Positions 4,968 to 29,759 of a stretch of DNA of 35,783 nt are shown here, piece by piece. This stretch comes from a virus: the UHGV virus genome UHGV-0117379; one strand, 5' to 3'. The notes beneath the pieces are model-generated. The model was given only the letters and a program-made list of their open reading frames with translations. It did not search any database and was not told where the DNA came from. Position numbers and translations under genes: made by a program. Each line of letters begins with the position of its first letter. Position 1 is the first letter of the stretch.

Positions 4968-5266
4968 CAGGGGCTGTGCGTATCCATCAATTAAAAATTG
5001 CACCTAAGTATTTCAACGCTGTGGTTGCAGGTCAAAAGACGGCTGAACTTCGTAAAGACGATCGTGGCTATAAAGTTGGTGATGTTCTTTCTCTTTGCGA
5101 ATGGAAGCATGGCGTATTTACGGGTAGGGAATGGGCCGCGGTTATCTCTCATGTGCTTCCGGTTAATGACGTCATGGCAGTTTCAGAACAATGGGTGATG
5201 CTATCAATTCGCTCATTAACCCCATTAGAAGCTTTAGGATATGTTATTGCAGGAGGTGCTGTATGA
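4964..5266 (+). CDS. DUF3850/ASCH-like small protein
   Basis: ATG 4964 overlaps the previous stop (ATGA) with GGAGGTG RBS; the family assignment is from memory of the sequence pattern. Confidence 0.55.
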
Positions 5267-6120
5267 GCACCATCCTGAAATGGGCGGGTAATAAAACCAC
5301 CATTATGTCCGAACTGAAAAAATACCTTCCTGCTGGCACGCGACTGGTTGAACCTTTCGCGGGTTCTTGTGCTGTGATGATGGAGACGGATTACCCCAGC
5401 TATCTGGTTGCGGATATTAATCCTGATTTAATCAACCTCTATAAAAAGGTTGCTGCTGATTGTGAGGCGTTTATATCTCGTGCCAGAGCTTTATTTGAGG
5501 AAGCAAACAGAGAGGTGGCTTATTACAACATAAGGCAGGAGTTTAATTACTCCACTGAAATTACTGATTTCATGAAAGCGGTATATTTTCTGTATCTCAA
5601 TCGTCATGGTTACCGTGGGCTATGTCGCTATAACAAGAGCGGGTATTTCAACATTCCCTACGGTAATTATAAAAATCCGTATTTCCCTGAAAAAGAAATT
5701 CGCGCATTTGCAGAGAAAGCCCAGCGGGCAACGTTTATCTGCGCCAGCTTTGATGAAACGCTGGCGATGTTGAAGGCGGGGGATGTGGTGTATTGCGATC
5801 CGCCTTATGACGGTACGTTTTCCGGCTATCACACTGATGGCTTCACTGAAGATGACCAGTATCACCTGGCATCCGTTCTTGAACATCGATCATCTGAAGG
5901 TCATCCGGTCATTGTTTCTAACAGTGACACATCCCTGATCCGTTCGCTGTATCGCAATTTTACTCACCACTACATCAAGGCAAAACGCAGCATCGGCGTG
6001 GCAGCTGGTGAGAGTAAATCTGCAACAGAAATCATCGCTGTTTCCGGGCCGCGCTGCTGGGTAGGATTTGATCCTTCGCGTGGCGTGGATTGTTCCGTCG
6101 TGTACGGAGTGCGTGCATGA
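5263..6120 (+). CDS. dam: DNA adenine methyltransferase (Dam family, N6-adenine)
   Basis: N-terminal LKWAGNK...PFAGS AdoMet motif and catalytic DPPY motif ([10 protein letters not shown]); ATG 5263 overlaps the previous stop; AGGAGGTG RBS. Confidence 0.85.
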
Positions 6121-9403: not shown

Positions 9404-9622
9404 ATGTCAAGTATCGCCGCATTGAAGCTGGGTAATCCAGTTGAACGTTTGGCACGGGTTCTGAAAGAGAACCAGGACAAGCTCAATCTGAGTAAAGATG
9501 GTTTTGTGTCCGTAGATTTGTCCAACGAAGAAGCTATGAAAGCCATCCGAGATCAGATGGATAAGCTTGAAGGCATCAAAACGAGCACTGTTAAAGCAAA
9601 ATATTATTACAGAACCCGATAA
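9404..9622 (+). CDS. Hypothetical small soluble protein (72 aa)
   Basis: ATG 9404 with AAGGAGGGG RBS; stop overlaps the next start (TAATG). Confidence 0.6.
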   Translation: MSSIAALKLGNPVERLARVLKENQDKLNLSKDGFVSVDLSNEEAMKAIRDQMDKLEGIKTSTVKAKYYYRTR

Positions 9623-10464
9623 TGGCAACATTACTTTTAGCAGTGATTTTGGTTAGTGGTTTTATATATGTAAACCTATCACTTTCAACACGTTATAGAT
9701 ATAAGCGTTCCAATGGCTGGGACGCTTATTTTTTTGTGGCTGCATGGGGAATTGTCTTTTTCCTCGCTGGCGGCTTCCTTACCTTCGCTCTTAACATCAG
9801 CGGTGGGTTTCGCTGGTTTTCTAATGCGCTGAATCTGACTCCAGACAGCTTTAACGGGATGTTATCCACCACAACCGATAAACCGCAGCGCATCAATGAA
9901 ATTAAGCAAATCGCGTGGGTTGTGATTTCAATAGTTCTCGCGGCGCTGTTCGGTTGGCTAAACAAACGCCGTACTTCAAAAGGGGATCGCCGTTGGGATG
10001 CACTGGCAAAGGCAGTGGGAAACAATGCTTTTGAATCGCTGCTCATGGAAGCATCAGCTCGCCAGTTTCCTATCATTGCTACACTTTCATCACGCAAAAT
10101 CTATGTAGGGCTGGTGACTTGCCCTGCGTTGGAAAATGGATTGTCGGAACACCTTGAAATTCTCCCCTTGCTGAGCGGATATCGTGATAAAGACGACCTA
10201 ACGATAAATATCACGACAAACTATCATCAGCACTATCTTGATAGCGGTGTTATCAATGGGATGTCGCGCCTGAATATCCAGGATTTCCGTGTGCTTCTCC
10301 CTAAAGATGAAGTTGAAACCATCTCGTTTTTTGATACTGAAACGTATAACAAATTTAAAGAAAACGAAGCGCGTGACCGGAAAGACTGCCGCAAGTTGGG
10401 TGGTAAAAAGCCATCCGCACGCAGGAGAAAGACTGCTGGCGACGCAGAGCAGGGTAGTGCATGA
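9622..10464 (+). CDS. Membrane protein with three predicted N-terminal TM helices, unknown function
   Basis: Hydrophobic segments LLLAVILVSGFIYV, AYFFVAAWGIVFFLAGGFLTFAL and IAWVVISIVLAALFGWL, then a roughly 170-aa soluble domain; AT-rich. Confidence 0.65.
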   Translation: MATLLLAVILVSGFIYVNLSLSTRYRYKRSNGWDAYFFVAAWGIVFFLAGGFLTFALNISGGFRWFSNALNLTPDSFNGMLSTTTDKPQRINEIKQIAWVVISIVLAALFGWLNKRRTSKGDRRWDALAKAVGNNAFESLLMEASARQFPIIATLSSRKIYVGLVTCPALENGLSEHLEILPLLSGYRDKDDLTINITTNYHQHYLDSGVINGMSRLNIQDFRVLLPKDEVETISFFDTETYNKFKENEARDRKDCRKLGGKKPSARRRKTAGDAEQGSA

Positions 10465-10512
10465 CTATGCTGCATGAATTTGCATGATCGTTTGAGGATC
10501 GTTTTAGCTCCG

Positions 10513-10537
10513 GCCCGCCAGTTCAGGCGGGCTTTTT
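10513..10537 (+). terminator. Rho-independent terminator (GCCCGC-loop-GCGGGC followed by TTTTT)
   Basis: Read directly: stem 10513-10518/10527-10532, T-run 10533-10537, about 50 nt after the membrane-protein stop. Confidence 0.6.
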
Positions 10538-10581
10538 CATATCTCATGCAGGTGCATGAAAACCACTACACAAAGCGGGCA

Positions 10582-10600
10582 GGCGTGGCGGGGATACGAG
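10582..10600. other. Putative cos cohesive-end sequence GGCGTGGCGGGGATACGAG
   Basis: First 13 nt identical to the P2/186 cohesive-end consensus GGCG(A/T)GGCGGGGAAAGCA as I remember it (15/19 to 186). Preceded by five copies of TGCATGA. Confidence 0.4.
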
Positions 10601-10665
10601 CGCGCGCTCATTACTTTTATAATTCTAGGGTTATAATACAGGGCTATCTTTCTAGGAGAAAACAC

Positions 10666-12318
10666 ATGTCCTTAGAGTTTATCAAAGAACAGTTGTCAGA
10701 TTTTATCTCATCTACAGAACCAGAAGTAATGGCTATACAGGGTGAATGGGGAATTGGTAAAACCTATACTTGGAATACGTTCCTAAAAGATAATAAAGAT
10801 AAGGTTGCATTTAATAGATATAGTTATGTCTCTCTTTTTGGTATAAATTCACTAGATTCTTTAAAGTATTCTATTTTTGAGAATGCAATTACAAAGGAAT
10901 ATATTGGAAATAAACCTGATTTGGAGACAGCAACAACAAACGCAAGTGGACTTTTTGAATCGTTTTCTCGAAAAGCCGCAGGTTTGTTAAAAGAAGCTCC
11001 TGTTGTAAAAAACTTCTCTACGACACTTGAAGCAATGTCATTTCTGACCGTTTCTAAAATGATTGTAGTAATAGATGACTTAGAAAGGCGTGGCAAAAAC
11101 TTAGATGTTAAAGATGTTTTAGGGCTAGTATCTCTATTAAAGGAGCAGAAGGATTGTAAGGTGGTTCTATTGCTTAACAATGGCACAGCTAGTATGGAGG
11201 ATTATTCTACTTATAAAGAAAAGGTCATTGATAGAGATATCACTTACAATCCAACACCAGAAGAATGCGCAGATATAGCCTATAAAGGTGATTTTCATGT
11301 TTATAACTTGTTAAGTAAATATTCCATTTCTTTAGGTATCAAGAATATTCGAATCTTAAAAAAGATAGAACGTTTTTTCGTGTCCTTAACACCAAATATT
11401 ATAGGTGATGTTGAGACAATTTCAAATGAAGTTGCGCATTCATTAACTCTGTATTGTTGGAGCCATTACGGATTTTCTCCAGAGGGAGATGTGCCATCAC
11501 TAGAATATATTAGGGGAGTGAGGAATATATATACTTATAATGACAAGGAAGAAGGCCATGAGAAAGTCTGGCTTAATACCTTGCTTAAATATGGATATAG
11601 AAAAACGAATGATCTTGATGAGGTTCTTATTGATATGGTTAGATATGGCTATCTTGATAAGAGCAGTTTCCAAAGACAAATAAGCCTAAGGAATGAGGAG
11701 ATTACGCGTGATAATAAACGAGGTTCCTTATCTGAGGCATGGCAGTTCTTTCATAATTCATTTGATGACAATCAAAATCAGGTTGTTGACAAGCTATATC
11801 AAGCGGTGGTTGATGGGATGAAGTATGTGACTCCAAGTGATTTAGATAATGTTGTCGGACTATATAGGGATTTCGGAGAGAATGCTAAGGCGAGTGAATT
11901 GATTGAACAGTTTATTAATTATGGTAACGATGCTCTAAAGGAATATGTTCAATCTATTTATGTGAATGTTCATCCCGTAAGAGATGCTGAGTTGTTGTCA
12001 AAAATTCAAGCCTATTCTAATATTATAAATATTGATGGTTCAATATATGATGTTCTTAAGAAATTATCAGGTCAGAATGGTTGGTCTGATAGACATGAGG
12101 AAATATTGGATGCTGCTTCAGTAGATGACTACTATCAATTATTTAAAAATGTCATTCTTGATGGTGGTGATTCAATAATAGCTACGGCGCTTAAATTCGG
12201 AAATTATAGTAATGGTTCTGATAGAATGAATCGTATAGGGAAAAAGGCAAGGGATGCCTTGATAAGAATTGGAGATGAATCGGCGATTAATAAAATACGT
12301 GTAAGGCGATTTTTGTGA
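10666..12318 (+). CDS. KAP-family P-loop NTPase (candidate defence cargo)
   Basis: ATG 10666 with AGGAG RBS (track ORF starts at 10474). Walker A GEWGIGKT and KAP-type Walker B VVIDDLERR; AT-rich; own TATAAT boxes (10618-10623, 10632-10637) and a downstream terminator. Confidence 0.75.
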   Translation: MSLEFIKEQLSDFISSTEPEVMAIQGEWGIGKTYTWNTFLKDNKDKVAFNRYSYVSLFGINSLDSLKYSIFENAITKEYIGNKPDLETATTNASGLFESFSRKAAGLLKEAPVVKNFSTTLEAMSFLTVSKMIVVIDDLERRGKNLDVKDVLGLVSLLKEQKDCKVVLLLNNGTASMEDYSTYKEKVIDRDITYNPTPEECADIAYKGDFHVYNLLSKYSISLGIKNIRILKKIERFFVSLTPNIIGDVETISNEVAHSLTLYCWSHYGFSPEGDVPSLEYIRGVRNIYTYNDKEEGHEKVWLNTLLKYGYRKTNDLDEVLIDMVRYGYLDKSSFQRQISLRNEEITRDNKRGSLSEAWQFFHNSFDDNQNQVVDKLYQAVVDGMKYVTPSDLDNVVGLYRDFGENAKASELIEQFINYGNDALKEYVQSIYVNVHPVRDAELLSKIQAYSNIINIDGSIYDVLKKLSGQNGWSDRHEEILDAASVDDYYQLFKNVILDGGDSIIATALKFGNYSNGSDRMNRIGKKARDALIRIGDESAINKIRVRRFL

Positions 12319-15143: not shown

Positions 15144-15189
15144 GGCACAAACCTACAGCCTTGAATGAAGGCTTTCCCCGCCTGCGGTT

Positions 15190-15207
15190 TGTGTGGTTGT
15201 CGGTACA
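15190..15207. promoter_or_regulatory. Ogr-type late-promoter dyad TGT-N12-ACA in the P/O divergent region
   Basis: TGTgtggttgtcggtACA read directly; centre about 87 bp upstream of the O start codon. Confidence 0.5.
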
Positions 15208-15285
15208 AATACCGCGCATTGTTTCACTGCCCTCATCACCGCAACCATAAGGCTCCAGTAAGTTTTTTCTAACGGAGCACGGCTC

Positions 15286-19881: not shown

Positions 19882-20275
19882 AGCAGTGCCTTATGTCCGC
19901 AATAACCCGGACAAACTGCATCTGTTTGTGGATAACGGTTCGCTGGTTGCCACGGGGGCCAGCTCCATGTCATGGGAGTACCGCTATACCCTGAACGTGG
20001 TGATAGAGGATTTCAGCGGCGACCAAAATTTGCTGATGGCCCCGGTTTTACTGTGGCTGCGGGATAACCAGCCCGATGCCATCAATAACCCGGCGTTACG
20101 GGAAAAGCTATTCACCTTTGAGGTGGATATTCTGCGCAACGATGTCTGTGATATCAGCCTTAACCTGCAACTGACGGAACGTGTGCTGGTCAGCACTAAC
20201 GGCAGTGTGTCGAGCGTTGAAGCTATAGCGGAACCTGATGAACCTGAAGAAATGTGGACGGTGAAACGTGGCTGA
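19844..20275 (+). CDS. R: Tail completion protein R (P2 gpR-like)
   Basis: Track ORF starts at TTG 19823; GTG 19844 follows CAGGAGC RBS and aligns with the P2 R N-terminus as I recall it. Confidence 0.75.
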   Translation: MNKPQSLRHAINKAVPYVRNNPDKLHLFVDNGSLVATGASSMSWEYRYTLNVVIEDFSGDQNLLMAPVLLWLRDNQPDAINNPALREKLFTFEVDILRNDVCDISLNLQLTERVLVSTNGSVSSVEAIAEPDEPEEMWTVKRG

Positions 20276-20732
20276 ATTGCAGAAAGTGGACGACTGGCTG
20301 AGTGCCTTGCTGGCGAATCTGGAACCAGCCGCCAGAAGCCGCATGATGCGCCAGCTGGCGCAGGAACTGCGCCGGACACAGCAGCAGAATATCAGGATGC
20401 AACGCAATCCTGATGGCAGCAGCTATGAACCGAGGCGAGTAACAGCACGCAGTAAAAAAGGCCGCATCAAACGGCAGATGTTTACAAAACTTCGCACCAC
20501 AAAATACCTGAAAACCGCCGCCAGCGCGGATTCTGCCAGCGTACAGTTTGAAGGTAAGGTGCAGCGCATCGCCCGCGTTCACCTTTACGGCCTGCGTGAT
20601 CGCGTCAGTCGAAAAGGACCGGAGGTCCGTTATGCAGAGCGTCGTTTGTTAGGCATTGCTGAAAAAGAACAAAGTTTTATATTTTACACATTAATCAGTT
20701 GGTTACAGGAAAAGGGAGGGTTGCATAAGTGA
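20268..20732 (+). CDS. S: Tail completion / virion morphogenesis protein S (P2 gpS-like); C-terminus possibly chimeric
   Basis: GTG start overlapping the R stop; the last 25 or so codons are AT-rich like the adjacent moron. Confidence 0.75.
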   Translation: MAELQKVDDWLSALLANLEPAARSRMMRQLAQELRRTQQQNIRMQRNPDGSSYEPRRVTARSKKGRIKRQMFTKLRTTKYLKTAASADSASVQFEGKVQRIARVHLYGLRDRVSRKGPEVRYAERRLLGIAEKEQSFIFYTLISWLQEKGGLHK

Positions 20733-20782
20733 GTTTATTTTACTTCAATGAAAATATAAAATCTGCTATATATAAAAACATT

Positions 20783-20791
20783 TGTTATAAT
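20783..20791 (+). promoter_or_regulatory. Extended -10 element TGTTATAAT for the moron NTPase gene
   Basis: TG-N-TATAAT read directly, about 30 bp upstream of ATG 20820; weak -35. Confidence 0.45.
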
Positions 20792-20819
20792 GATATGATT
20801 TTCTTAAGGATAGGATGTT

Positions 20820-22331
20820 ATGCGCCCCAAAATTGGTGATTTTGAATTTGGTGAGGTTTATGGAGAGAATGAGGTATTATTTCTCGATAATTACTCGAAA
20901 TATTTTTATGATATAAATAATTCATTAAGTAAACTTGATAGAAAAAATAAAATGCTCGTAATTGGCAGGAAGGGGACGGGTAAGACATTGCTTGTTAATG
21001 TCTACTGTAACGCCAAGCGAAAAAATAATTATATTGCAGTTGTGGAATCATTAAAAGATTTTGTTTTTCATGAACTTACTCACTTTCAGGGGCAGGATGT
21101 GTCTTCCACAAAATATGTACCAATTTTCAAGTGGATGATATTGGTCAATCTTGCTAAGAATATTGTAAGTAATAAAAAAGGATTTAGTGAGGATAAAATA
21201 GTTCATTTGGAAAGTTTTTTACGTTCTTTTGGCCATGTCGCGGGCGAGTTAAGGCCTGAGCAAACAGTTGAAATAACTAGGGAGTACCAAGCGTCGGGTG
21301 AGGTTGGTATCGGATTTAGATTCCCAGTATTACGTGGTGAAGCCAAAGCAAAAGATGGTGAGGTCGAGAAAACAAAAGAAACAAAAAAGAATTATTTGGA
21401 ATGTATGGAATCTTTGCAGTGTTTTATTGTTGACATGCTAAAAGAGAGTAATAAAAAAATATATGTATTTTATGATGAGTTAGATGATAAGTTTGATGCA
21501 ACAGTTGAATATAAAAATGCAATGATAAGTTTTTTAAATGCTGTTGTGTCAATTAATAAAACTCTAATGCAAAATAAAATAGATGCTAAAATTGGTGCAG
21601 TTATTCGTCATGATATAATAAATACTTTTTCATCGCCGAATATTAATAAAATCATTGAAGATAACTCTGTTACACTTGATTGGTGTTCTGCTGGAGAACG
21701 AGCAAGTGATTCTGAGATTTTTGATATGATTGCTTTTAAGATCAAAAACTCCACTGATTATTATAATGATTTAAATGGTTCTAATTTGTTCGGGAAAATT
21801 TTCACTGAGAGAGTTGCAGGTGAGCATAGCTCTATTTATATTTTACATAGAACTCTAGGTCGCCCAAGAGATGCCGTTAGGATGCTAACTTATATTCAAG
21901 ATGAATATGGAGAAAATACTGAAAGATTTGAAAGTTCCATGTTTACAAAGATTTCTAAAAAATACTCATCTTATCTTTTACGTGAAATTAGATCTGAGCT
22001 TGCGGGACATTTAAGTGATTCAGAAATAGATGACAGTTTTTCTCTTTTACGTTCAGTAAAAAAAAGAGGTTTCACTCCACATTTAATCAAGGAAAAATTT
22101 GAAGAATTGAAGTTAGGAGATGGTACATTAACGCTTAATAAAATACTGAGTTGTTTATTTAAAGTCGGTGCTATCGGGAATGTACTCAGGAGATCTAAAA
22201 CAGATGGCGGAGATGTTTATTTGTGGTCATTTAATGATGAAGATTTAGAAATGGACCCAACGTTGAATTTTGAAATACACTGTGGTTTGTGGGATGCACT
22301 AGGAATTATCAAGCCTAAACTTAGGCAATAA
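20820..22331 (+). CDS. P-loop NTPase (503 aa), candidate single-gene defence moron
   Basis: Walker A GRKGTGKT and Walker B IYVFYDELDD; AT-rich; own promoter and a perfect terminator; inserted between S and V. Confidence 0.8.
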   Translation: MRPKIGDFEFGEVYGENEVLFLDNYSKYFYDINNSLSKLDRKNKMLVIGRKGTGKTLLVNVYCNAKRKNNYIAVVESLKDFVFHELTHFQGQDVSSTKYVPIFKWMILVNLAKNIVSNKKGFSEDKIVHLESFLRSFGHVAGELRPEQTVEITREYQASGEVGIGFRFPVLRGEAKAKDGEVEKTKETKKNYLECMESLQCFIVDMLKESNKKIYVFYDELDDKFDATVEYKNAMISFLNAVVSINKTLMQNKIDAKIGAVIRHDIINTFSSPNINKIIEDNSVTLDWCSAGERASDSEIFDMIAFKIKNSTDYYNDLNGSNLFGKIFTERVAGEHSSIYILHRTLGRPRDAVRMLTYIQDEYGENTERFESSMFTKISKKYSSYLLREIRSELAGHLSDSEIDDSFSLLRSVKKRGFTPHLIKEKFEELKLGDGTLTLNKILSCLFKVGAIGNVLRRSKTDGGDVYLWSFNDEDLEMDPTLNFEIHCGLWDALGIIKPKLRQ

Positions 22332-22332
22332 T

Positions 22333-22359
22333 AAAAACGCCCTTTAATAGGGCGTTTTT
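22333..22359 (+). terminator. Rho-independent terminator, perfect 11-bp stem AAAAACGCCCT/AGGGCGTTTTT
   Basis: Read directly; 5-nt loop TTAAT; begins 2 nt after the moron stop codon. Confidence 0.75.
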
Positions 22360-22393
22360 ATTTAAAGTTGTCATTCTTTCTTTAAATTATCAT

Positions 22394-22411
22394 TGTGCCA
22401 AATCTCTTACA
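22394..22411. promoter_or_regulatory. Ogr-type late-promoter dyad TGT-N12-ACA upstream of V
   Basis: TGTgccaaatctcttACA read directly; its centre is about 55 bp from the V ATG, which is tight for a -55 element. Confidence 0.4.
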
Positions 22412-22457
22412 ATTCTAAATAGATGAATTAGTCTTTGTTCTGTTTGATAATTTGGAA

Positions 22458-23036
22458 ATGAATACACAACTGACAGAAATCATGCGCCTTATCACCAACC
22501 TGATCCGCACTGGTGTAGTCACCGAAGTGGACAGGGAAAACTGGCTTTGCCGGGTGAAAACAGGCGACTTAGAAACCAACTGGATCAGCTGGCTGACCCT
22601 GCGTGCCGGGAATGCCCGGACATGGTGGCGACCATCGGAAGGTGAGCAGGTGGTGCTGCTGAGTCTGGGCGGCAATCTGGAGACCGCCTTTGCGCTGCCC
22701 GCTGTCTATTCGAATCAGTTCGCACCACCGTCGACGTCGGCGGACGCCTGCGTGACAGAACATCCTGACGGTGGCTGGTTTGAATACGAACCCGCCACCG
22801 GGCGCTGGTATGTCAGGGGCATCAAATCCATGGTTATTGAGGCTGCCGACAATATCACCCTGAAAACCAGTGAGTTTGTGCTGGAGGCTGACCGCACGCG
22901 TATTAATAGTGAAGTAGTGATCAATGGCGGCGTTACCCAGGGCGGCGGTGCGATGAGTTCTAACGGAATTGTGGTTGATGCACATCAGCATACTGGCGTC
23001 CTGAAAGGCGGCGACACAACCGGAGGCCCGGTATGA
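22458..23036 (+). CDS. V: Baseplate assembly protein V (spike; P2 gpV-like)
   Basis: ATG 22458 (track ORF starts at TTG 22452); size and position match P2 V. Confidence 0.8.
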   Translation: MNTQLTEIMRLITNLIRTGVVTEVDRENWLCRVKTGDLETNWISWLTLRAGNARTWWRPSEGEQVVLLSLGGNLETAFALPAVYSNQFAPPSTSADACVTEHPDGGWFEYEPATGRWYVRGIKSMVIEAADNITLKTSEFVLEADRTRINSEVVINGGVTQGGGAMSSNGIVVDAHQHTGVLKGGDTTGGPV

Positions 23037-24885: not shown

Positions 24886-26435
24886 GCACAAAATTTTATA
24901 CCCTGCTGACGGATATTGGCGCGGCGAAACTTGCCAGCGCCGCCGCGCTCGGTGTGCCTTTAAAAATTACCCATATGGCGGTCGGCGATGGCGGCGGAAC
25001 ATTACCAACGCCGGACGCAAAGCAGACAGCACTGGTAAATGAGAAACGCCGGGCTGCGCTGAATATGCTCTATATCGACCCGCAGAACAGCAGCCAGATT
25101 ATTGCTGAACAGGTGATCCCTGAAAACGAGGGCGGTTGGTGGATACGTGAAGTGGGCCTGTTTGATGAGTCCGGGGCATTGATTGCCGTGGGCAACTGCC
25201 CGGAAAGCTATAAGCCGCAACTGGCTGAAGGCAGCGGGCGTACCCAGACCGTGCGTATGGTGTTGATTACCAGCAGCACGGACAATATCACCCTGAAAAT
25301 CGACCCTGCCGTAGTGCTGGCAACCCGCAAGTATGTGGATGATAAGGTACTGGAGCTGAAGGTGTACGCGGATGATCAGATGGCAAAACATCTTGCCGCA
25401 CCGGACCCGCATTCACAGTATGCACAGAAAGAAAGTCCTACGTTTACCGGGACACCCAAAGCGCCAACGCCAGCGGCGGGGAATAACACCACGCAGGTTG
25501 CGACCACCGCGTTTGTTCAGGAGGCACTGACGGCTCTTATTAATGGTGCGCCAGCCACGCTGGACACGCTGAAAGAAATAGCCGTAGCCATTAACAATGA
25601 TCCGAAATTCAGTACCACCATTAACAATGCGCTGGCACTGAAAGCGCCGCTGTCGAGTCCGGCACTCACCGGAACGCCAACAGCCCCCACGGCGGCGCAG
25701 TCGGTCAACAATACACAGATTGCCACCACGGCTTTTGTGAAATCGGCGATTGCGGCAATGGTGGGTTCTGCACCTGCGGCACTGGATACACTGAACGAAC
25801 TGGCGGCGGCGCTGGGGAATGACCCGAACTTTGCCACGACAATGCTTAATGCACTGGCAGGTAAACAACCGCTGGACAATACGCTGACTAATTTGAGTGG
25901 AAAGGATGTTGCTGGTCTTCTCGCATACCTTGGTTTGGGAGAAGGCTCTGCATTACCTGTTGGTGTCCCTGTTCCGTGGCCTTTAGCAACTCCGCCAACA
26001 GGCTGGTTGAAATGCAACGGTGCGCCATTTATCGCCTCCCAATATCCGAAGCTTGCTCTCGCTTACCCCGGTCTTTTGCTGCCAGACCTGCGCGGTGAAT
26101 TTATTCGTGGATGGGATGATGGGCGAGGGGTTGATCCAGGGCGTTCGATAGGGTCTAGCCAGGGATGGTCTCCAGGATCGCACGTCCACGGCTTGGAAAT
26201 TTGGACATCGGCTAGCGGCAGCATCCCAACTAGTACAACTGTACCATCGCAGAACGGTAGGGAGTTAGGGCCAGCAGCGACAGCAGGCGACGGCGGCGTT
26301 ATCCGATCACTTGGCGGCAGCGGCGGGACAAACAACAACTCTGCTACTTCTGTGACTACGCAGAGCCCCACCTTTGGAAACCAAGAAGGTTACCCGCGCA
26401 ACGTCGCATTTAACTATATCGTGAGGGCAGCCTGA
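24882..26435 (+). CDS. H: Tail fibre protein H; C-terminal segment lies inside the invertible region
   Basis: 517 aa at the P2 H position; crossover site at 25918-25943 lies within the coding sequence. Confidence 0.8.
   Translation: MSTKFYTLLTDIGAAKLASAAALGVPLKITHMAVGDGGGTLPTPDAKQTALVNEKRRAALNMLYIDPQNSSQIIAEQVIPENEGGWWIREVGLFDESGALIAVGNCPESYKPQLAEGSGRTQTVRMVLITSSTDNITLKIDPAVVLATRKYVDDKVLELKVYADDQMAKHLAAPDPHSQYAQKESPTFTGTPKAPTPAAGNNTTQVATTAFVQEALTALINGAPATLDTLKEIAVAINNDPKFSTTINNALALKAPLSSPALTGTPTAPTAAQSVNNTQIATTAFVKSAIAAMVGSAPAALDTLNELAAALGNDPNFATTMLNALAGKQPLDNTLTNLSGKDVAGLLAYLGLGEGSALPVGVPVPWPLATPPTGWLKCNGAPFIASQYPKLALAYPGLLLPDLRGEFIRGWDDGRGVDPGRSIGSSQGWSPGSHVHGLEIWTSASGSIPTSTTVPSQNGRELGPAATAGDGGVIRSLGGSGGTNNNSATSVTTQSPTFGNQEGYPRNVAFNYIVRAA
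25918..25943. repeat. Invertase crossover site (hix/gix-like, left), inside H
   Basis: TTCTCGCATACCTTGGTTTGGGAGAA; its 3' 14 nt are the exact reverse complement of part of the right site; central dinucleotide TT. Confidence 0.6.
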
Positions 26436-27037
26436 TGAATAAAGCCGTATTAAATAGCGAACTCATTACTACAAAGGCAGGAAACATTACCGTTTATAAT
26501 TTTGATGCTGAGACGAAGGAATATCTTTCCACATCAACCGAATACCTTGCTGTGGGTGTCGGTATTCCGGCGTATTCATGCTTAGATGCACCAGGTACAC
26601 ATAAAGCCGGTTATGCAATCTGCCGCTCTGCAGATTTTAACTCATGGGAATATGTGCCAGACCATCGCGGTGAAATCATCTATAGCACCGAAACAGGAGA
26701 ATCGAAAGAAATCACATCTCTGGGTGATTACCCTGAAAATACAACCACTATCGCCCCGTTAACGCCATATGATAAATGGGATGGTGAGAAATGGGTGACG
26801 GATACTGAGGCACAGCATAGCGCCGCAGTAGAAGCGGCAGAAGCACAGCGCCAGTCACTGATTGATGCAGCAATGTCTTCCATCAGTCTGATTCAACTGA
26901 AATTACAGGCCGGACGGAAGCTGACGCAGGCAGAAACAACCCGACTTAACGCTGTGCTGGATTATATTGACGCGGTGACGGCAACAGATACCAGCACCGC
27001 GCCTGATGTCATCTGGCCTGAACTGCCGGAGGCGTAG
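26435..27037 (+). CDS. G: Tail fibre assembly protein (P2 gpG-like)
   Basis: 200 aa immediately after H; start overlaps the H stop. Confidence 0.75.
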   Translation: MNKAVLNSELITTKAGNITVYNFDAETKEYLSTSTEYLAVGVGIPAYSCLDAPGTHKAGYAICRSADFNSWEYVPDHRGEIIYSTETGESKEITSLGDYPENTTTIAPLTPYDKWDGEKWVTDTEAQHSAAVEAAEAQRQSLIDAAMSSISLIQLKLQAGRKLTQAETTRLNAVLDYIDAVTATDTSTAPDVIWPELPEA

Positions 27038-27449
27038 GCCATTCAATATCTGGCGCACCGGAAGTATCGACCAGTTCCAGTGCGTCCAGATAATCCAGCC
27101 ACAAATTATATTGCACCAGTTCCTCACCTTTCAGGCGACCAATCGCCGCTTTACCAGGCCATTGCTTACTGTTTATGTATTCGTTGACCTGATTAATCAA
27201 TTGCTGCTTTTTCAGTTCGGCTGCGGCAATTTGTTCCTCATGAGTTGGCGGTGGAATATCAATCCATGCAGGCATTCCGTCGATGACACCTCTGTATTTT
27301 CCTTCTGGTGCTTCCTTCATAAATTCGGCAGCAACAGTGTCGTCAATTTCGATTCCATCATCGGGCCATTCGCCGGATTCCTGATAAGCGATTTTAAGCT
27401 CCACAGGGAAAAACGCATTTTTATCGGCACTGAAAATATATTTCTGCAT
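27009..27449 (-). CDS. Alternative tail fibre assembly protein (inverted orientation)
   Basis: 146 aa, convergent with and overlapping G by 29 nt; C-terminus VDTSGAPDIEWP parallels the G C-terminus TDTSTAPDVIWP. Confidence 0.7.
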   Translation of the reverse strand: MQKYIFSADKNAFFPVELKIAYQESGEWPDDGIEIDDTVAAEFMKEAPEGKYRGVIDGMPAWIDIPPPTHEEQIAAAELKKQQLINQVNEYINSKQWPGKAAIGRLKGEELVQYNLWLDYLDALELVDTSGAPDIEWPTPPAVQAR

Positions 27450-27451
27450 TT

Positions 27452-27811
27452 CTACCGTCCTATCGAAATATAACTGAATCTGTATTGCTGTGAGATATCA
27501 CTGGTTGCCACACGCCACGCTGAATTACTGATATGTTCAAAATTTACAGACAAAACCTGCGGGGCAGGAATCGACGGGTCTGACTGAACGGCATCAGACA
27601 TAACACTGACTGAAACCATCGGCTGATTAGGGAATGGTATAGGGAAGTGTCCACTGATAAAGCGGGTCGTGTTTCCTGAAAAAGTGCCAAACTGAACAAT
27701 ATATCCACCTGGTAGCCTGAACCATCCCGAACCAGAAGCGAATGCTCCCATATCCGGTATCTGATTATCTCCTGTGCCCACATCCCTTTTCGCCGCTTCT
27801 CCCAAACCAAC
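27452..27811 (-). CDS. Alternative tail-fibre C-terminal cassette (promoterless; fuses to H after inversion)
   Basis: Minus-strand frame shares GLGE with H at the crossover and is in the same codon phase relative to the central TT/AA dinucleotide; track ORF 27452..27850 adds a spurious N-terminus. Confidence 0.6.
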   Translation of the reverse strand, partial: VGLGEAAKRDVGTGDNQIPDMGAFASGSGWFRLPGGYIVQFGTFSGNTTRFISGHFPIPFPNQPMVSVSVMSDAVQSDPSIPAPQVLSVNFEHISNSAWRVATSDISQQYRFSYISIGR

Positions 27812-27822
27812 GTTTAAGAAAA
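27797..27822. repeat. Invertase crossover site (hix/gix-like, right), next to the invertase gene
   Basis: TTCTCCCAAACCAACGTTTAAGAAAA resembles the Hin/Gin 26-bp site as I remember it (TTCTTGAAAACCAAGGTTTTTGATAA); central AA. Confidence 0.6.
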
Positions 27823-27877
27823 TGCAGAGGTAACAGCTAACTGGCATCATCTCCGGTTTTTATTCAGGGGGATGATC

Positions 27878-28444
27878 ATGCTTATTGGCTATGTACGCGT
27901 GTCAACAAATGACCAGAACACCGATTTGCAACGTAATGCACTGAACTGCGCGGGATGTGAGCGGATTTTTGAGGACAAAATCAGTGGCACTAAGTCCGAC
28001 AGACCGGGGCTGAAAAAACTACTCAGGACACTATCGGCAGGAGACACGCTGGTTGTCTGGAAGCTGGACAGGTTGGGGCGCAGTATGCGGCATCTTGTTA
28101 CGCTGATAGAAGAGTTGCGCCAGCGTGGTGTGAATTTCAGAAGCCTGACTGACAGTATTGATACCAGTACCCCAATGGGCCGTTTCTTTTTTCATGTCAT
28201 GGGTGCCCTAGCTGAAATGGAACGCGAACTGATAGTTGAACGTACCAGGGCGGGGCTGGCTGCAGCTCGTGATAAAGGCAGAGTAGGTGGACGCCGTCCT
28301 AAGTTGACCACCGAACAGTGGGCACAGATTGGACGCTTACTCGAGGCCGGAGAATCAAGACAGCGTATTGCACTGATTTTTGATGTGGGTGTTTCCACAA
28401 TTTATAGAAAATTTCCGGCAAATAAGAGTAATGAATCCCCCTGA
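27878..28444 (+). CDS. Serine recombinase DNA invertase (Hin/Gin/Cin/Pin family)
   Basis: MLIGYVRVSTNDQNTDLQRNAL... is near-identical in pattern to the Gin/Hin N-terminus including the catalytic Ser region; ATG 27878 preferred over 27872 on RBS spacing. Confidence 0.9.
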   Translation: MLIGYVRVSTNDQNTDLQRNALNCAGCERIFEDKISGTKSDRPGLKKLLRTLSAGDTLVVWKLDRLGRSMRHLVTLIEELRQRGVNFRSLTDSIDTSTPMGRFFFHVMGALAEMERELIVERTRAGLAAARDKGRVGGRRPKLTTEQWAQIGRLLEAGESRQRIALIFDVGVSTIYRKFPANKSNESP

Positions 28445-28492
28445 ATCAGCATTATGTTGATTATCCCTGCAAGCAGACAAATACCGTTATTT

Positions 28493-28510
28493 TGTGTGAA
28501 TAACGACACA
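28493..28510. promoter_or_regulatory. Ogr-type late-promoter dyad TGT-N12-ACA upstream of FI
   Basis: TGTgtgaataacgacACA read directly; centre about 85 bp upstream of the FI ATG. Confidence 0.5.
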
Positions 28511-28586
28511 ACTGCGCTTAGCTGTTTGTCAGGCACAATCACTTCAACATAGGGCGAAGCCTAATCCAATCAGGAGGTTCGCCACT

Positions 28587-29759
28587 ATGGCTCAGGATTA
28601 CCACCACGGGGTGCGCGTTGTTGAAGTCAACGAAGGCACCCGATCTATTACCACGGTGAGCACCGCCATCGTGGGTATGGTCTGCACGGGCGATGATGCC
28701 GATGCAAAAATGTTTCCTCTTAATAAACCCGTGCTGATCACTGATGTGCTGACTGCCAGCGGTAAAGCGGGTGAGTCCGGTACTCTGGCCCGTTCGCTGG
28801 ATGCCATCGCTGACCAGGCAAAACCCGTGACCATTGTTGTGCGTGTGCCGCAGGGTGAAACGGAAGACGAAACCACGACCAATATCATCGGCGCAGTGAC
28901 TGCTGAAGGTAAAAAAACAGGTATGAAAGCCCTGTTATCTGCCCAGTCACAGCTCGGCGTTAAACCGCGCATTCTCGGCGTGCCAGGCCACGACACCAAG
29001 GCGGTAGCTACTGAGTTGCTGAGCGTGGCGCAAAGCCTGCGTGGATTTGCTTACCTGTCAGCGTATGGCTGCAAGACAGTGCAGGAGGCGATCACTTACC
29101 GCGAAAACTTCAGCCAGCGCGAAGGGATGCTGATCTGGCCTGACTTTACTGGCTGGGACACGGTGCTGAATGCCGAAGCAACGGCATATGCCACCGCCCG
29201 TGCGCTTGGTCTGCGCGCCAAAATTGACGAGCAGACCGGATGGCACAAAAGCCTGTCCAATGTGGGCGTGAACGGTGTCACCGGAATTTCTGCAGATGTG
29301 TTCTGGGATCTGCAGGACCCGGCAACCGATGCAGGTCTGCTGAACCAGAACGACGTCACCACGCTTGTGCGTAAAGACGGTTTCCGCTTCTGGGGGTCCC
29401 GCTGCCTGAGTGATGACCCGCTCTTTGCCTTCGAAAACTACACCCGCACGGCGCAGGTGCTGACGGACACGATGGCAGAAGCACACATGTGGGCGGTGGA
29501 TAAACCGCTTAACCCGTCGCTGGCCCGCGACATTATCGAAGGTATCCGCGCCAAAATGCGCAGACTGGTCAGTCAGGGCTATCTCATTGGTGGTGATTGC
29601 TGGCTGGATGAGTCGGTGAACGACAAAGACACGCTGAAAGCCGGAAAACTCACCATCGACTACGACTACACGCCAGTGCCGCCACTTGAAAACCTGATGC
29701 TGCGTCAGCGCATCACCGATCAGTACCTGGTGAATTTCGCCAGCCAGGTCAGCGCGTAA
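28587..29759 (+). CDS. FI: Tail sheath protein (P2 gpFI-like)
   Basis: 390 aa, CAGGAGG RBS; position and size match P2 FI. Confidence 0.85.

Follow-up and report, generated by a model that had tools for sequence, protein, structure and literature searches.

The window analysed here, a stretch of 35,783 nucleotides taken at its full length, is a P2-like prophage (UHGV virus genome UHGV-0117379). Between its genes for tail completion (S) and the baseplate (V) lies an open reading frame (ORF) at 20820-22331 that encodes a 503-residue AAA+ ATPase of the Fun(Z)-like, or Sll1717, family, identified as WP_001247533.1 or a near-identical protein. Judging from homology and genomic context, we give a probability of roughly three in four to the interpretation that this is a horizontally acquired cargo gene that belongs to the Fun(Z) family and acts against phages. 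All features of this locus for which coordinates are given below are on the plus strand.

Gene S (20268-20732; tail completion, virion morphogenesis) is the last gene of the late O operon, and gene V (22458-23036; baseplate spike, baseplate assembly) is the first gene of the V operon. Both were identified from their ORFs and from RefSeq annotation, which for S was that of the near-identical prophage of Escherichia coli ATCC 8739, and at V the homology to phages with an empty site is back. The placement of the ORF between these two genes and its AT-richness had been pointed out in the initial annotation of this DNA, and both descriptions are accurate: the G+C content is 0.31-0.34 over 20801-22400 (about 0.32) versus 0.53-0.60 in the flanking late genes (about 0.56). 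The same annotation had recognized the Walker A, or P-loop, motif GRKGTGKT (20964-20987, residues 49-56) and the Walker B motif IYVFYDELDD (21459-21488, residues 214-223), which is of the hhhhDxhD type; both are present as described. As read from the sequence, a Shine-Dalgarno-like element, TAAGGATAGGA (20805-20815), precedes the ATG at 20820.

Alignment to the empty-site Escherichia phage 500465-1 delimits a variable cargo cassette of approximately 1.75 kb (20649-22392), which replaces an S-V spacer of approximately 135 bp. Homology to this phage is lost at about position 20648, inside S, and resumes at the pV promoter and the start of V (22393-22458, with the V start codon at 22458). Hence, the last 28 or so codons of S are derived from the cassette. 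In the 20401-20800 bin, at the 3' end of S, the G+C content drops from 0.54 to 0.44. The cargo had initially been delimited to 20733-22360, which gave the right location, but the variable segment is larger and starts inside S. With the insert, the S-V span is 3601 bp versus 1926 bp in empty prophages. The cassette also supplies the C-terminus of S (20649-20732), which is 154 residues long here versus 148-150 residues in phage 500465-1, in P2 and in the Citrobacter and Kluyvera copies of the locus. The latter two copies keep a normal-length S followed by a spacer of about 140 nucleotides, which shows that the point of recombination was not the same for all copies of this cargo.

The right edge of the cargo slot, where the V operon starts, is formed by the pV late-promoter activator dyad of the Ogr type, TTGT-N12-ACAA (22393-22412). 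This pattern occurs exactly three times in the 35.8-kb window (15189-15208, 22393-22412 and 28492-28511), and the three dyads coincide with the Ogr-activated late promoters pP/pO, pV and pF of P2, where an annotated activator site and transcription start precede V. The pV dyad is conserved in the empty-site and Citrobacter copies, and in P2-like prophages the pattern cleanly marks the limits of operons and the slots used by cargo.

The stop codon of the cargo ORF is followed immediately by an intrinsic terminator hairpin, AAAAACGCCCT-TTAAT-AGGGCGTTTTT (22333-22359), with a loop of five nucleotides and a flanking A-run and T-run. Its stem of 11 bp is perfect, in agreement with the initial annotation, and the RNA hairpin has a minimum free energy of -24.1 kcal/mol (z = -7.6), none of 200 shuffled sequences being as stable. 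A generic promoter and terminator scanner of the window listed neither this hairpin, which escaped it because the T-run forms part of the stem, nor the promoter proposed for the gene. In P2, the equivalent terminator is that of the O operon and is found just after S. The cassette fills the gap between the two late operons, and the cargo terminator, which now ends the O operon too, stops both cargo transcription and any O-operon read-through. On the upstream side, a sequence match to an extended -10 element, TGTTATAAT (TGtTATAAT, 20783-20791), makes a promoter belonging to the gene itself plausible.

Membership in the Fun(Z) family

The initial annotation stated that the protein could not be placed in a named defence family and proposed searches with hidden Markov models, with structure and against a defence-system library. 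The hidden Markov model searches matched the protein end to end to two families. It scores 271.8 bits on the NCBIfam model NF047389 ('P-loop ATPase, Sll1717 family'; cutoff 75 bits), with residues 10-494 aligned to positions 1-454 of the 454-position profile, and 242.6 bits on phrog_13260 ('unknown function'), with residues 4-498 aligned to positions 3-493 of 497. The protein thus fits a named family, that of Fun(Z) of phage P2, and the novelty implied initially was too high. On the strength of these matches, the gene is a Fun(Z)-family member that sits in the S-V slot, which is occupied by orf30 in P2, and represents a divergent branch of a known family.

P2 fun(Z) was found by a tblastn search of phage genomes (E = 1e-7). 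Its product (NP_046777.1, 528 residues) carries the annotation 'cloned gene blocks growth of T5; nonessential; lysogenic conversion; confers sensitivity to FUdR', FUdR being 5-fluorodeoxyuridine, and it is a single-gene lysogenic-conversion factor that blocks a number of phages, among them T5 and the T-even phages. On NF047389, Fun(Z) reaches 209 bits over its full length, and on phrog_13260 it reaches 706 bits. When a profile of 38 homologs of the 503-residue protein was compared with Fun(Z) by hhalign, the probability was 99.9% (E = 1.5e-31, 478 columns), and a direct BLASTP comparison of the two proteins gave E = 4e-14 with 23% identity over residues 33-395. The two proteins align collinearly from end to end and have in common the Walker A motif, the hhhhDxhD Walker B motif and an RPRD motif. 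Both genes are single, AT-rich and nonessential cargo with their own terminator, and both lie between late operons of a P2-type prophage. They differ in that fun occupies the slot between genes G and FI and is antisense to its neighbours, whereas the gene described here occupies the S-V slot in the orientation of the late genes, and in that Fun(Z) has a phenylalanine at the position of H487 in the C-terminal motif.

The second relative of established function is DS-41 ('AAA2', WP_033812887.1), a single-gene defence of 502 residues that was validated in 2026 in the DefensePredictor study (PMC13092281). Its log10 protection is 5.3 against T4, 5.0 against Bas1, 4.7 against Candy, 3.6 against Bas63 and less against others, with an overall range of 1.4-5.3 (PMC13092281, Tables S6-S8). 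The two systems are similar in size and in their single-gene layout, and DS-41 has analogous motifs of its own, namely GQRGAGKS as Walker A, VLIDKLDE as Walker B, and SPRE. On NF047389, the first 399 residues of DS-41, which are those given in the supplement, reach 92 bits; this is above the cutoff of 75 and therefore puts DS-41 inside the same family model. The same fragment scores 326 bits on NF053860 (DS41_1_antiphage), the equivalog model of DS-41. DS-41 is nevertheless a separate branch, distant from the 503-residue protein.

Across the 38 homologs, residues G49, K51, G52, G54, K55, D219, D222, P349, R350 and D351 are invariant. When Fun(Z), the homolog of Lactococcus phage CAP, a cyanobacterial member and DS-41 are added, G49, G52, G54, K55, D219, D222, P349 and R350 are still invariant. 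An exhaustive profile search retrieved 6,514 representatives of clusters at 50% identity, 1,493 of them with an E-value of 1e-30 or better. The best 150 of these 6,514 relatives are without exception 342-552 residues long, and all but about six shorter partial sequences among them match end to end, which indicates that the unit of approximately 500 residues is self-contained; none of these 150 is fused to an effector domain. A Pfam scan of the protein returned only sub-threshold P-loop matches, and a sequence search of the PDB with the family profile gave matches at the P-loop level only (E = 0.003 or weaker).

We found no paper under the family name Sll1717, and no relevant paper under the names of Fun(Z) or, from 2022 on, under fun, tin or Abi. 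The main text of the DefensePredictor paper (PMC13092281) does not mention Fun, and neither that main text nor PADLOC v2 connects Fun(Z) and DS-41 with the 'Sll1717' family. Although phrog_13260 holds Fun(Z), it is labelled 'unknown function'; the name of NF047389 does not refer to Fun(Z), and PADLOC v2 has no model for either Fun(Z) or DS-41. As a result of such labels and missing models, standard annotation hides a defence gene known for decades together with thousands of its relatives.

Predicted fold and comparison with other ATPases

The structure-based search was carried out with an AlphaFold2 model, which has a predicted local distance difference test score (pLDDT) of 82.3 and a predicted template modelling score of 0.82 and is confident except for residues 140-190. 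The modelled chain consists of a 40-residue N-terminal segment, an AAA+ core, a helical lid, a helical linker and a winged-helix-like C-terminal domain. The core has a large insertion between strands beta2 and beta3, where the disordered and charged residues 140-190 are located (21237-21389, pLDDT below 50); strand beta3 comprises residues 214-219 at the start of the Walker B motif. The lid helix opens with the RPRD motif (21861-21872, residues 348-351), in which the three invariant residues are P349, R350 and D351. By its resemblance to the 'GDAR' sensor-2 motif of Orc1/Cdc6, R350 is a candidate sensor-2 arginine. The winged-helix-like domain (22065-22328, residues 416-503 approximately) has the secondary structure H-H-H-E-E-E and contains a FEIHxGLW motif, in which H487, G489 and L490 are nearly invariant among the 38 homologs.

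The closest structural neighbours are proteins of the Orc1/Cdc6 type, which consist of an AAA+ core, a lid and a C-terminal winged helix, and Orc1/Cdc6 and Sso1545 match the whole chain. The fold-match figures are 14.3 for Sso1545, 12.9 for TnsC, 12.5 for BrxC, 12.4 for Cdc6/Orc1, 12.1 for PAB2304 and 10.9 for MuB. For the remaining neighbours they are 10.0 for Avs5, 9.3 for RdrA and 9.3-10.2 for plant NLRs. The model thus has the fold of an Orc1/Cdc6-like AAA+ ATPase in three parts, a nucleotide-binding domain, a lid and a winged helix. A fold search of BFVD returned generic AAA+ and clamp-loader matches only, and domains of the nuclease, protease, TIR, SIR2 or membrane kind are absent from the modelled protein. 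The chain is conserved almost evenly throughout, and the fastest-diverging part is the 140-190 insert, with an identity of 0.23 versus 0.45 overall among mid-distance homologs. We also considered a hypervariable sensor domain and rejected it, as only this disordered insert diverges faster than the rest.

The protein is set apart from Orc1/Cdc6, Sso1545/PAB2304, TnsC, MuB and DnaA by the lack of a Pfam match above threshold (ORC-CDC6-like, 15.2 versus 27 bits; AAA_16, 16.7 versus 32.6) and of a replication or transposition context. Unlike Avs/AVAST proteins, NLRs, RdrA of RADAR and BrxC of BREX, it has neither an N-terminal effector nor a C-terminal repeat sensor of the TPR, LRR or WD40 kind. 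STAND models match its P-loop region only, and all of them below threshold (nSTAND3, 15.1 versus 27.2; nSTAND6, 14.3 versus 27.7; NB-ARC, 13.0 versus 23.5). Furthermore, BrxC and RdrA act in multi-gene systems, whereas this ATPase gene has no partner genes. PtuA of Septu, AriA of PARIS, GajA of Gabija, BrxC of BREX and a MADS component were each rejected as identities of the protein because PADLOC gave no significant match and the gene is solitary between S and pV.

One could suppose that a protein whose nearest folds (Orc1/Cdc6, DnaA, RFC, TnsC and MuB) are initiators, loaders and transposition ATPases, and whose gene is located among tail genes, is a housekeeping ATPase of the phage, with a role in replication initiation, helicase loading, packaging or morphogenesis. 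However, nearly all close relatives of the prophage do without the gene and have intact S-V junctions, its base composition is foreign, the same slot holds unrelated defence genes in other prophages, Fun(Z) is annotated as nonessential, and homologs are found outside phages. We therefore consider a housekeeping role extremely improbable, the least credible of the explanations examined, and a cargo gene of the Fun(Z) family remains the preferred assignment.

Distribution of the gene and cargo at the S-V junction

In closely related phages, such as Escherichia phage 500465-1, the S-V junction is empty. This S-V region is contained in 1,052 of 5,426 complete E. coli genomes, and the gene itself is present in 9 of the 5,426. 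Copies of the cassette with 99.5-99.9% identity are found in E. coli ATCC 8739 and in eight further complete E. coli genomes, and the same cassette is carried by Klebsiella phage Kp4865-2. In ATCC 8739 (locus ECOLC_RS14855), RefSeq labels the protein 'P-loop ATPase, Sll1717 family' and shows it flanked by the virion morphogenesis protein (S) on one side and by baseplate protein V on the other. The prophage of the window and that of ATCC 8739 are distinct, as they differ in the cargo between genes A and Q and in the left flank.

More distant homologs occupy a variety of positions. Those of Citrobacter (73% identity; in a P2-like prophage) and Kluyvera (70%) are found in the S-V slot next to an S of normal length, that of Providencia (74%) adjoins the integrase of another prophage, and that of Enterobacter (82%) lies in an island with DarT/NADAR. 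Further away, the Vibrio homolog (50%) is at the edge of a corticovirus-like prophage, the Shewanella homolog (45%) in a lambda-like prophage, the Bacillus homolog (31%) beside two helicases, one Schlafen-like and one large, and the homolog of Lactococcus phage CAP (28%) directly after the lysin gene. In every context examined the gene is solitary and its neighbours differ each time, and no conserved partner gene was found in the neighbourhoods examined (Citrobacter, Kluyvera, Providencia, Enterobacter, Vibrio, Shewanella, Bacillus and a carB/TauE locus). The empty junctions in relatives, the rarity of the gene and its homologs in unrelated prophages and islands support the proposal, made in the initial annotation, that the cargo was acquired horizontally.

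The Vibrio homolog, from Vibrio parahaemolyticus, has a DUF3653 gene as its neighbour and borders a block that encodes a double-jelly-roll capsid protein of the corticovirus type (P2_N/P2_C) together with a replication protein of the GPA type. In one V. parahaemolyticus genome, a second block, which resembles a filamentous phage (Zot, secretin, coat), directly adjoins the corticovirus-type one.

The rarity of the gene (9 of 5,426 genomes), the lack of a known partner or effector, and the cost to the host that is implied by sensitisation to FUdR in the case of Fun(Z) would all suit a selfish or decaying passenger, i.e. an addiction-like toxic ATPase or a relic. Against this, the ORF is intact and has kept all family-invariant residues, near-identical copies are found in E. 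coli and in a Klebsiella phage, and the cassette has a strong dedicated terminator. In addition, full-length homologs at 64-88% identity in several genera point to purifying selection. A passenger of this kind is very unlikely in our estimate, and the more probable reading is that of anti-phage cargo, which the other occupants of the slot also suggest.

Cargo at the S-V junction was surveyed in an evenly spaced sample of 60 records from the 1,052 E. coli loci, 56 of which contained both flanks. The junction was empty in 31 of the 56 (span of 1,926 bp) and held cargo in 25 (about 45%), of at least 12 kinds. Annotated cargo includes DUF6216, TIR, SIR2, GmrSD, FRG and DUF6602 proteins, P-loop proteins, hypothetical proteins and IS1. 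In three examples of S-V cargo, PADLOC identified a complete Septu system (PtuA, 465 bits; PtuB, 190 bits), PDC-S49 (450 bits) and an ApeA-like protein (44.5 bits). The P-loop proteins among these, PDC-S49 and PtuA, were rejected as relatives of the 503-residue ATPase since they belong to different families.

P2 orf30 has no homology to the ATPase and no PADLOC match. It resembles the ATPase gene and other S-V cargo in occupying the same slot between the O-operon terminator and pV, in being AT-rich and in being nonessential. The description of orf30 as small in the initial annotation does not hold, as it encodes 261 residues, which is not especially small, and is located on the opposite strand. 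The three examined cargo examples are antisense to the late genes as well; the Septu genes, with a small hypothetical gene, occupy the S-V slot of E. coli CNREC_004-43 (L016:1110-2991) on the strand opposite to the late genes. The Fun(Z)-like gene, in contrast, runs in the direction of the late operons.

Two hotspots have been described in P2-like phages, A-Q (tin/old) and fun (PMC9122126; PMC9519451), and a preprint noted defence loci 'within the late genes' and 'downstream of GpL' (10.64898/2026.02.27.708500). The S-V slot fits the late-gene and GpL-downstream description of that preprint (10.64898/2026.02.27.708500). Rousset 2022 mentions none of fun, orf30, gpS and gpV.

Both described hotspots can be located in the window. 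The A-Q hotspot (9622-12318) holds a second AT-rich cargo (G+C content 0.31-0.37), consisting of a 280-residue ORF with no library match followed by a 614-residue KAP-type P-loop protein (10474-12318; KAP_NTPase, 29.5 bits; candidate PDC-S49, 96 bits). At the A-Q site of the ATCC 8739 prophage there are instead four unrelated hypothetical genes. As the PDC-S49 family occurs in the A-Q slot here and in the S-V slot of E. coli PigCaeca_2 (L017:953-2785, the 450-bit match given above), one cargo family moves between P2 hotspots. The classical fun slot between G and FI (26435-28587) contains an invertible segment for tail fibres, in which tail-fibre ORFs and assembly ORFs are opposed, and a serine invertase at 27872-28444 (Resolvase, 179 bits; HTH_7, 57 bits), and there is no defence gene in it.

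Two further genes of the window are worth recording. The early region encodes, at 5191-6120, a D12-class (Dam-like) N6-adenine DNA methyltransferase (MethyltransfD12, 257 bits), which could serve an anti-restriction or epigenetic function. The left flank (1-647) has no megablast match in the 5,426 complete E. coli genomes and encodes a TetR-family regulator (ORF 23-613), which is positioned like rcdA beside the ATCC 8739 prophage. This position and the lack of a match in E. coli suggest that the prophage is probably integrated at the equivalent attachment site of another enterobacterial species; the best phage matches come from Klebsiella.

Probable anti-phage function

The suggestion of the initial annotation that the cargo serves anti-phage defence gains support from homology to Fun(Z) and DS-41 and from a slot that elsewhere holds Septu, PDC-S49, ApeA-like, TIR, SIR2 and GmrSD cargo. 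The prophage would thus protect its host: the protein probably blocks unrelated lytic phages on its own, as Fun(Z) and DS-41 do. Which phages are affected by the S-V clade is not predictable from sequence.

Several observations speak against this interpretation or weaken it. The identity to Fun(Z) is only 21-23%. As to DS-41, the 503-residue protein fails the equivalog model NF053860 (26 versus 370 bits, E = 4.1e-6, residues 12-258), BLASTP against DS-41 is not significant, and hhalign of its family against DS-41 gives a probability of 20% only. With so little similarity to DS-41, function and phage range could have diverged. The defence-library check with PADLOC v2 found no meaningful match, the best E-values being 0.0065-0.05 (PDC-M28C, PbeC, mad8), a result explained by the absence of Fun(Z) and DS-41 models from PADLOC v2. 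Some members of the family are found in ordinary chromosomal settings, for example between carB and a TauE gene. As there is no effector domain, the step that blocks the phage or kills the cell is conjecture. The winged helix is not basic (12 K+R versus 13 D+E), for which reason we have down-weighted DNA binding by this domain as the main mechanism. Finally, the initial annotation had credited the gene with its own extended -10 promoter. The motif is indeed present at 20783-20791, but its -35 hexamer, CTGCTA, matches at three of six positions, which accounts for its absence from the output of the scanner, and a second perfect TGNTATAAT lies inside the cargo ORF at 21611. The window contains two such extended -10 motifs versus 0.86 expected, which is not significant (two or more in 21 of 100 shuffles), and the DNA ahead of the Citrobacter and Providencia copies of the gene has not conserved the motif.

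Competition between mobile elements has to be weighed as well, in which case the gene would exclude temperate phages, hinder P4-like satellites or protect the lytic cycle of its own prophage. The gene is borne by a prophage in the same orientation as the late operons, and read-through transcription from the late operon would occur at a late stage of P2 growth since the O-operon terminator is now downstream of the gene. P2 and P4 hotspots have also been discussed as arenas for contests between elements (PMC9122126; preprint 10.64898/2026.02.27.708500). However, Fun(Z) and DS-41 act on virulent phages, and homologs are present outside P2-like phages, in hosts and elements that have no P4 connection. 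We regard this explanation as improbable, and defence of the lysogen against unrelated lytic phages remains the favoured function.

How such a defence would work can be outlined tentatively by analogy. The protein would be made in the lysogen from its own promoter and would rest as a nucleotide-bound monomer until a cue from the phage early in infection drives it into an ATP-dependent assembled state. This assembled state may itself be the effector and engage DNA or a component of replication or packaging, in the manner of Orc1/Cdc6, TnsC, MuB and BrxC; alternatively, it may be toxic to the infected cell, which would amount to abortive infection. We hold this switch-and-assemble scheme to be possible, with the odds somewhat against it. 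The sensitivity to FUdR that Fun(Z) confers hints at a cue or target linked to DNA replication or to the thymidylate state.

A broader and more speculative proposal, which we consider rather doubtful, is that Fun(Z), DS-41 and the 503-residue protein each represent a deep branch within one very large class of immune ATPases that resemble Orc1/Cdc6 and have no effector (more than 6,500 clusters at 50% identity). These would stop phages on their own by an assembly that ATP drives on phage DNA or on a factor of replication or packaging, and not through activation of a nuclease or toxin, and the S-V clade would have its own trigger and phage range in a little-documented third defence hotspot of P2.

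A defence gene at S-V in a P2-like prophage is no surprise to specialists. The gap between the end of the O operon and pV, the S-V or orf30 slot, joins the A-Q and fun hotspots as a real defence slot that is often filled. The genes of the approximately 6,500 clusters that are labelled Sll1717 family or phrog_13260, all of which PADLOC v2 misses, can be regarded as candidate defence genes of the Fun(Z) type. A handle on the mechanism of Fun(Z) comes from the family and not from the S-V locus itself: Fun(Z), DS-41 and the S-V clade have in common a compact, effector-less fold with its Walker A, Walker B and RPRD residues.

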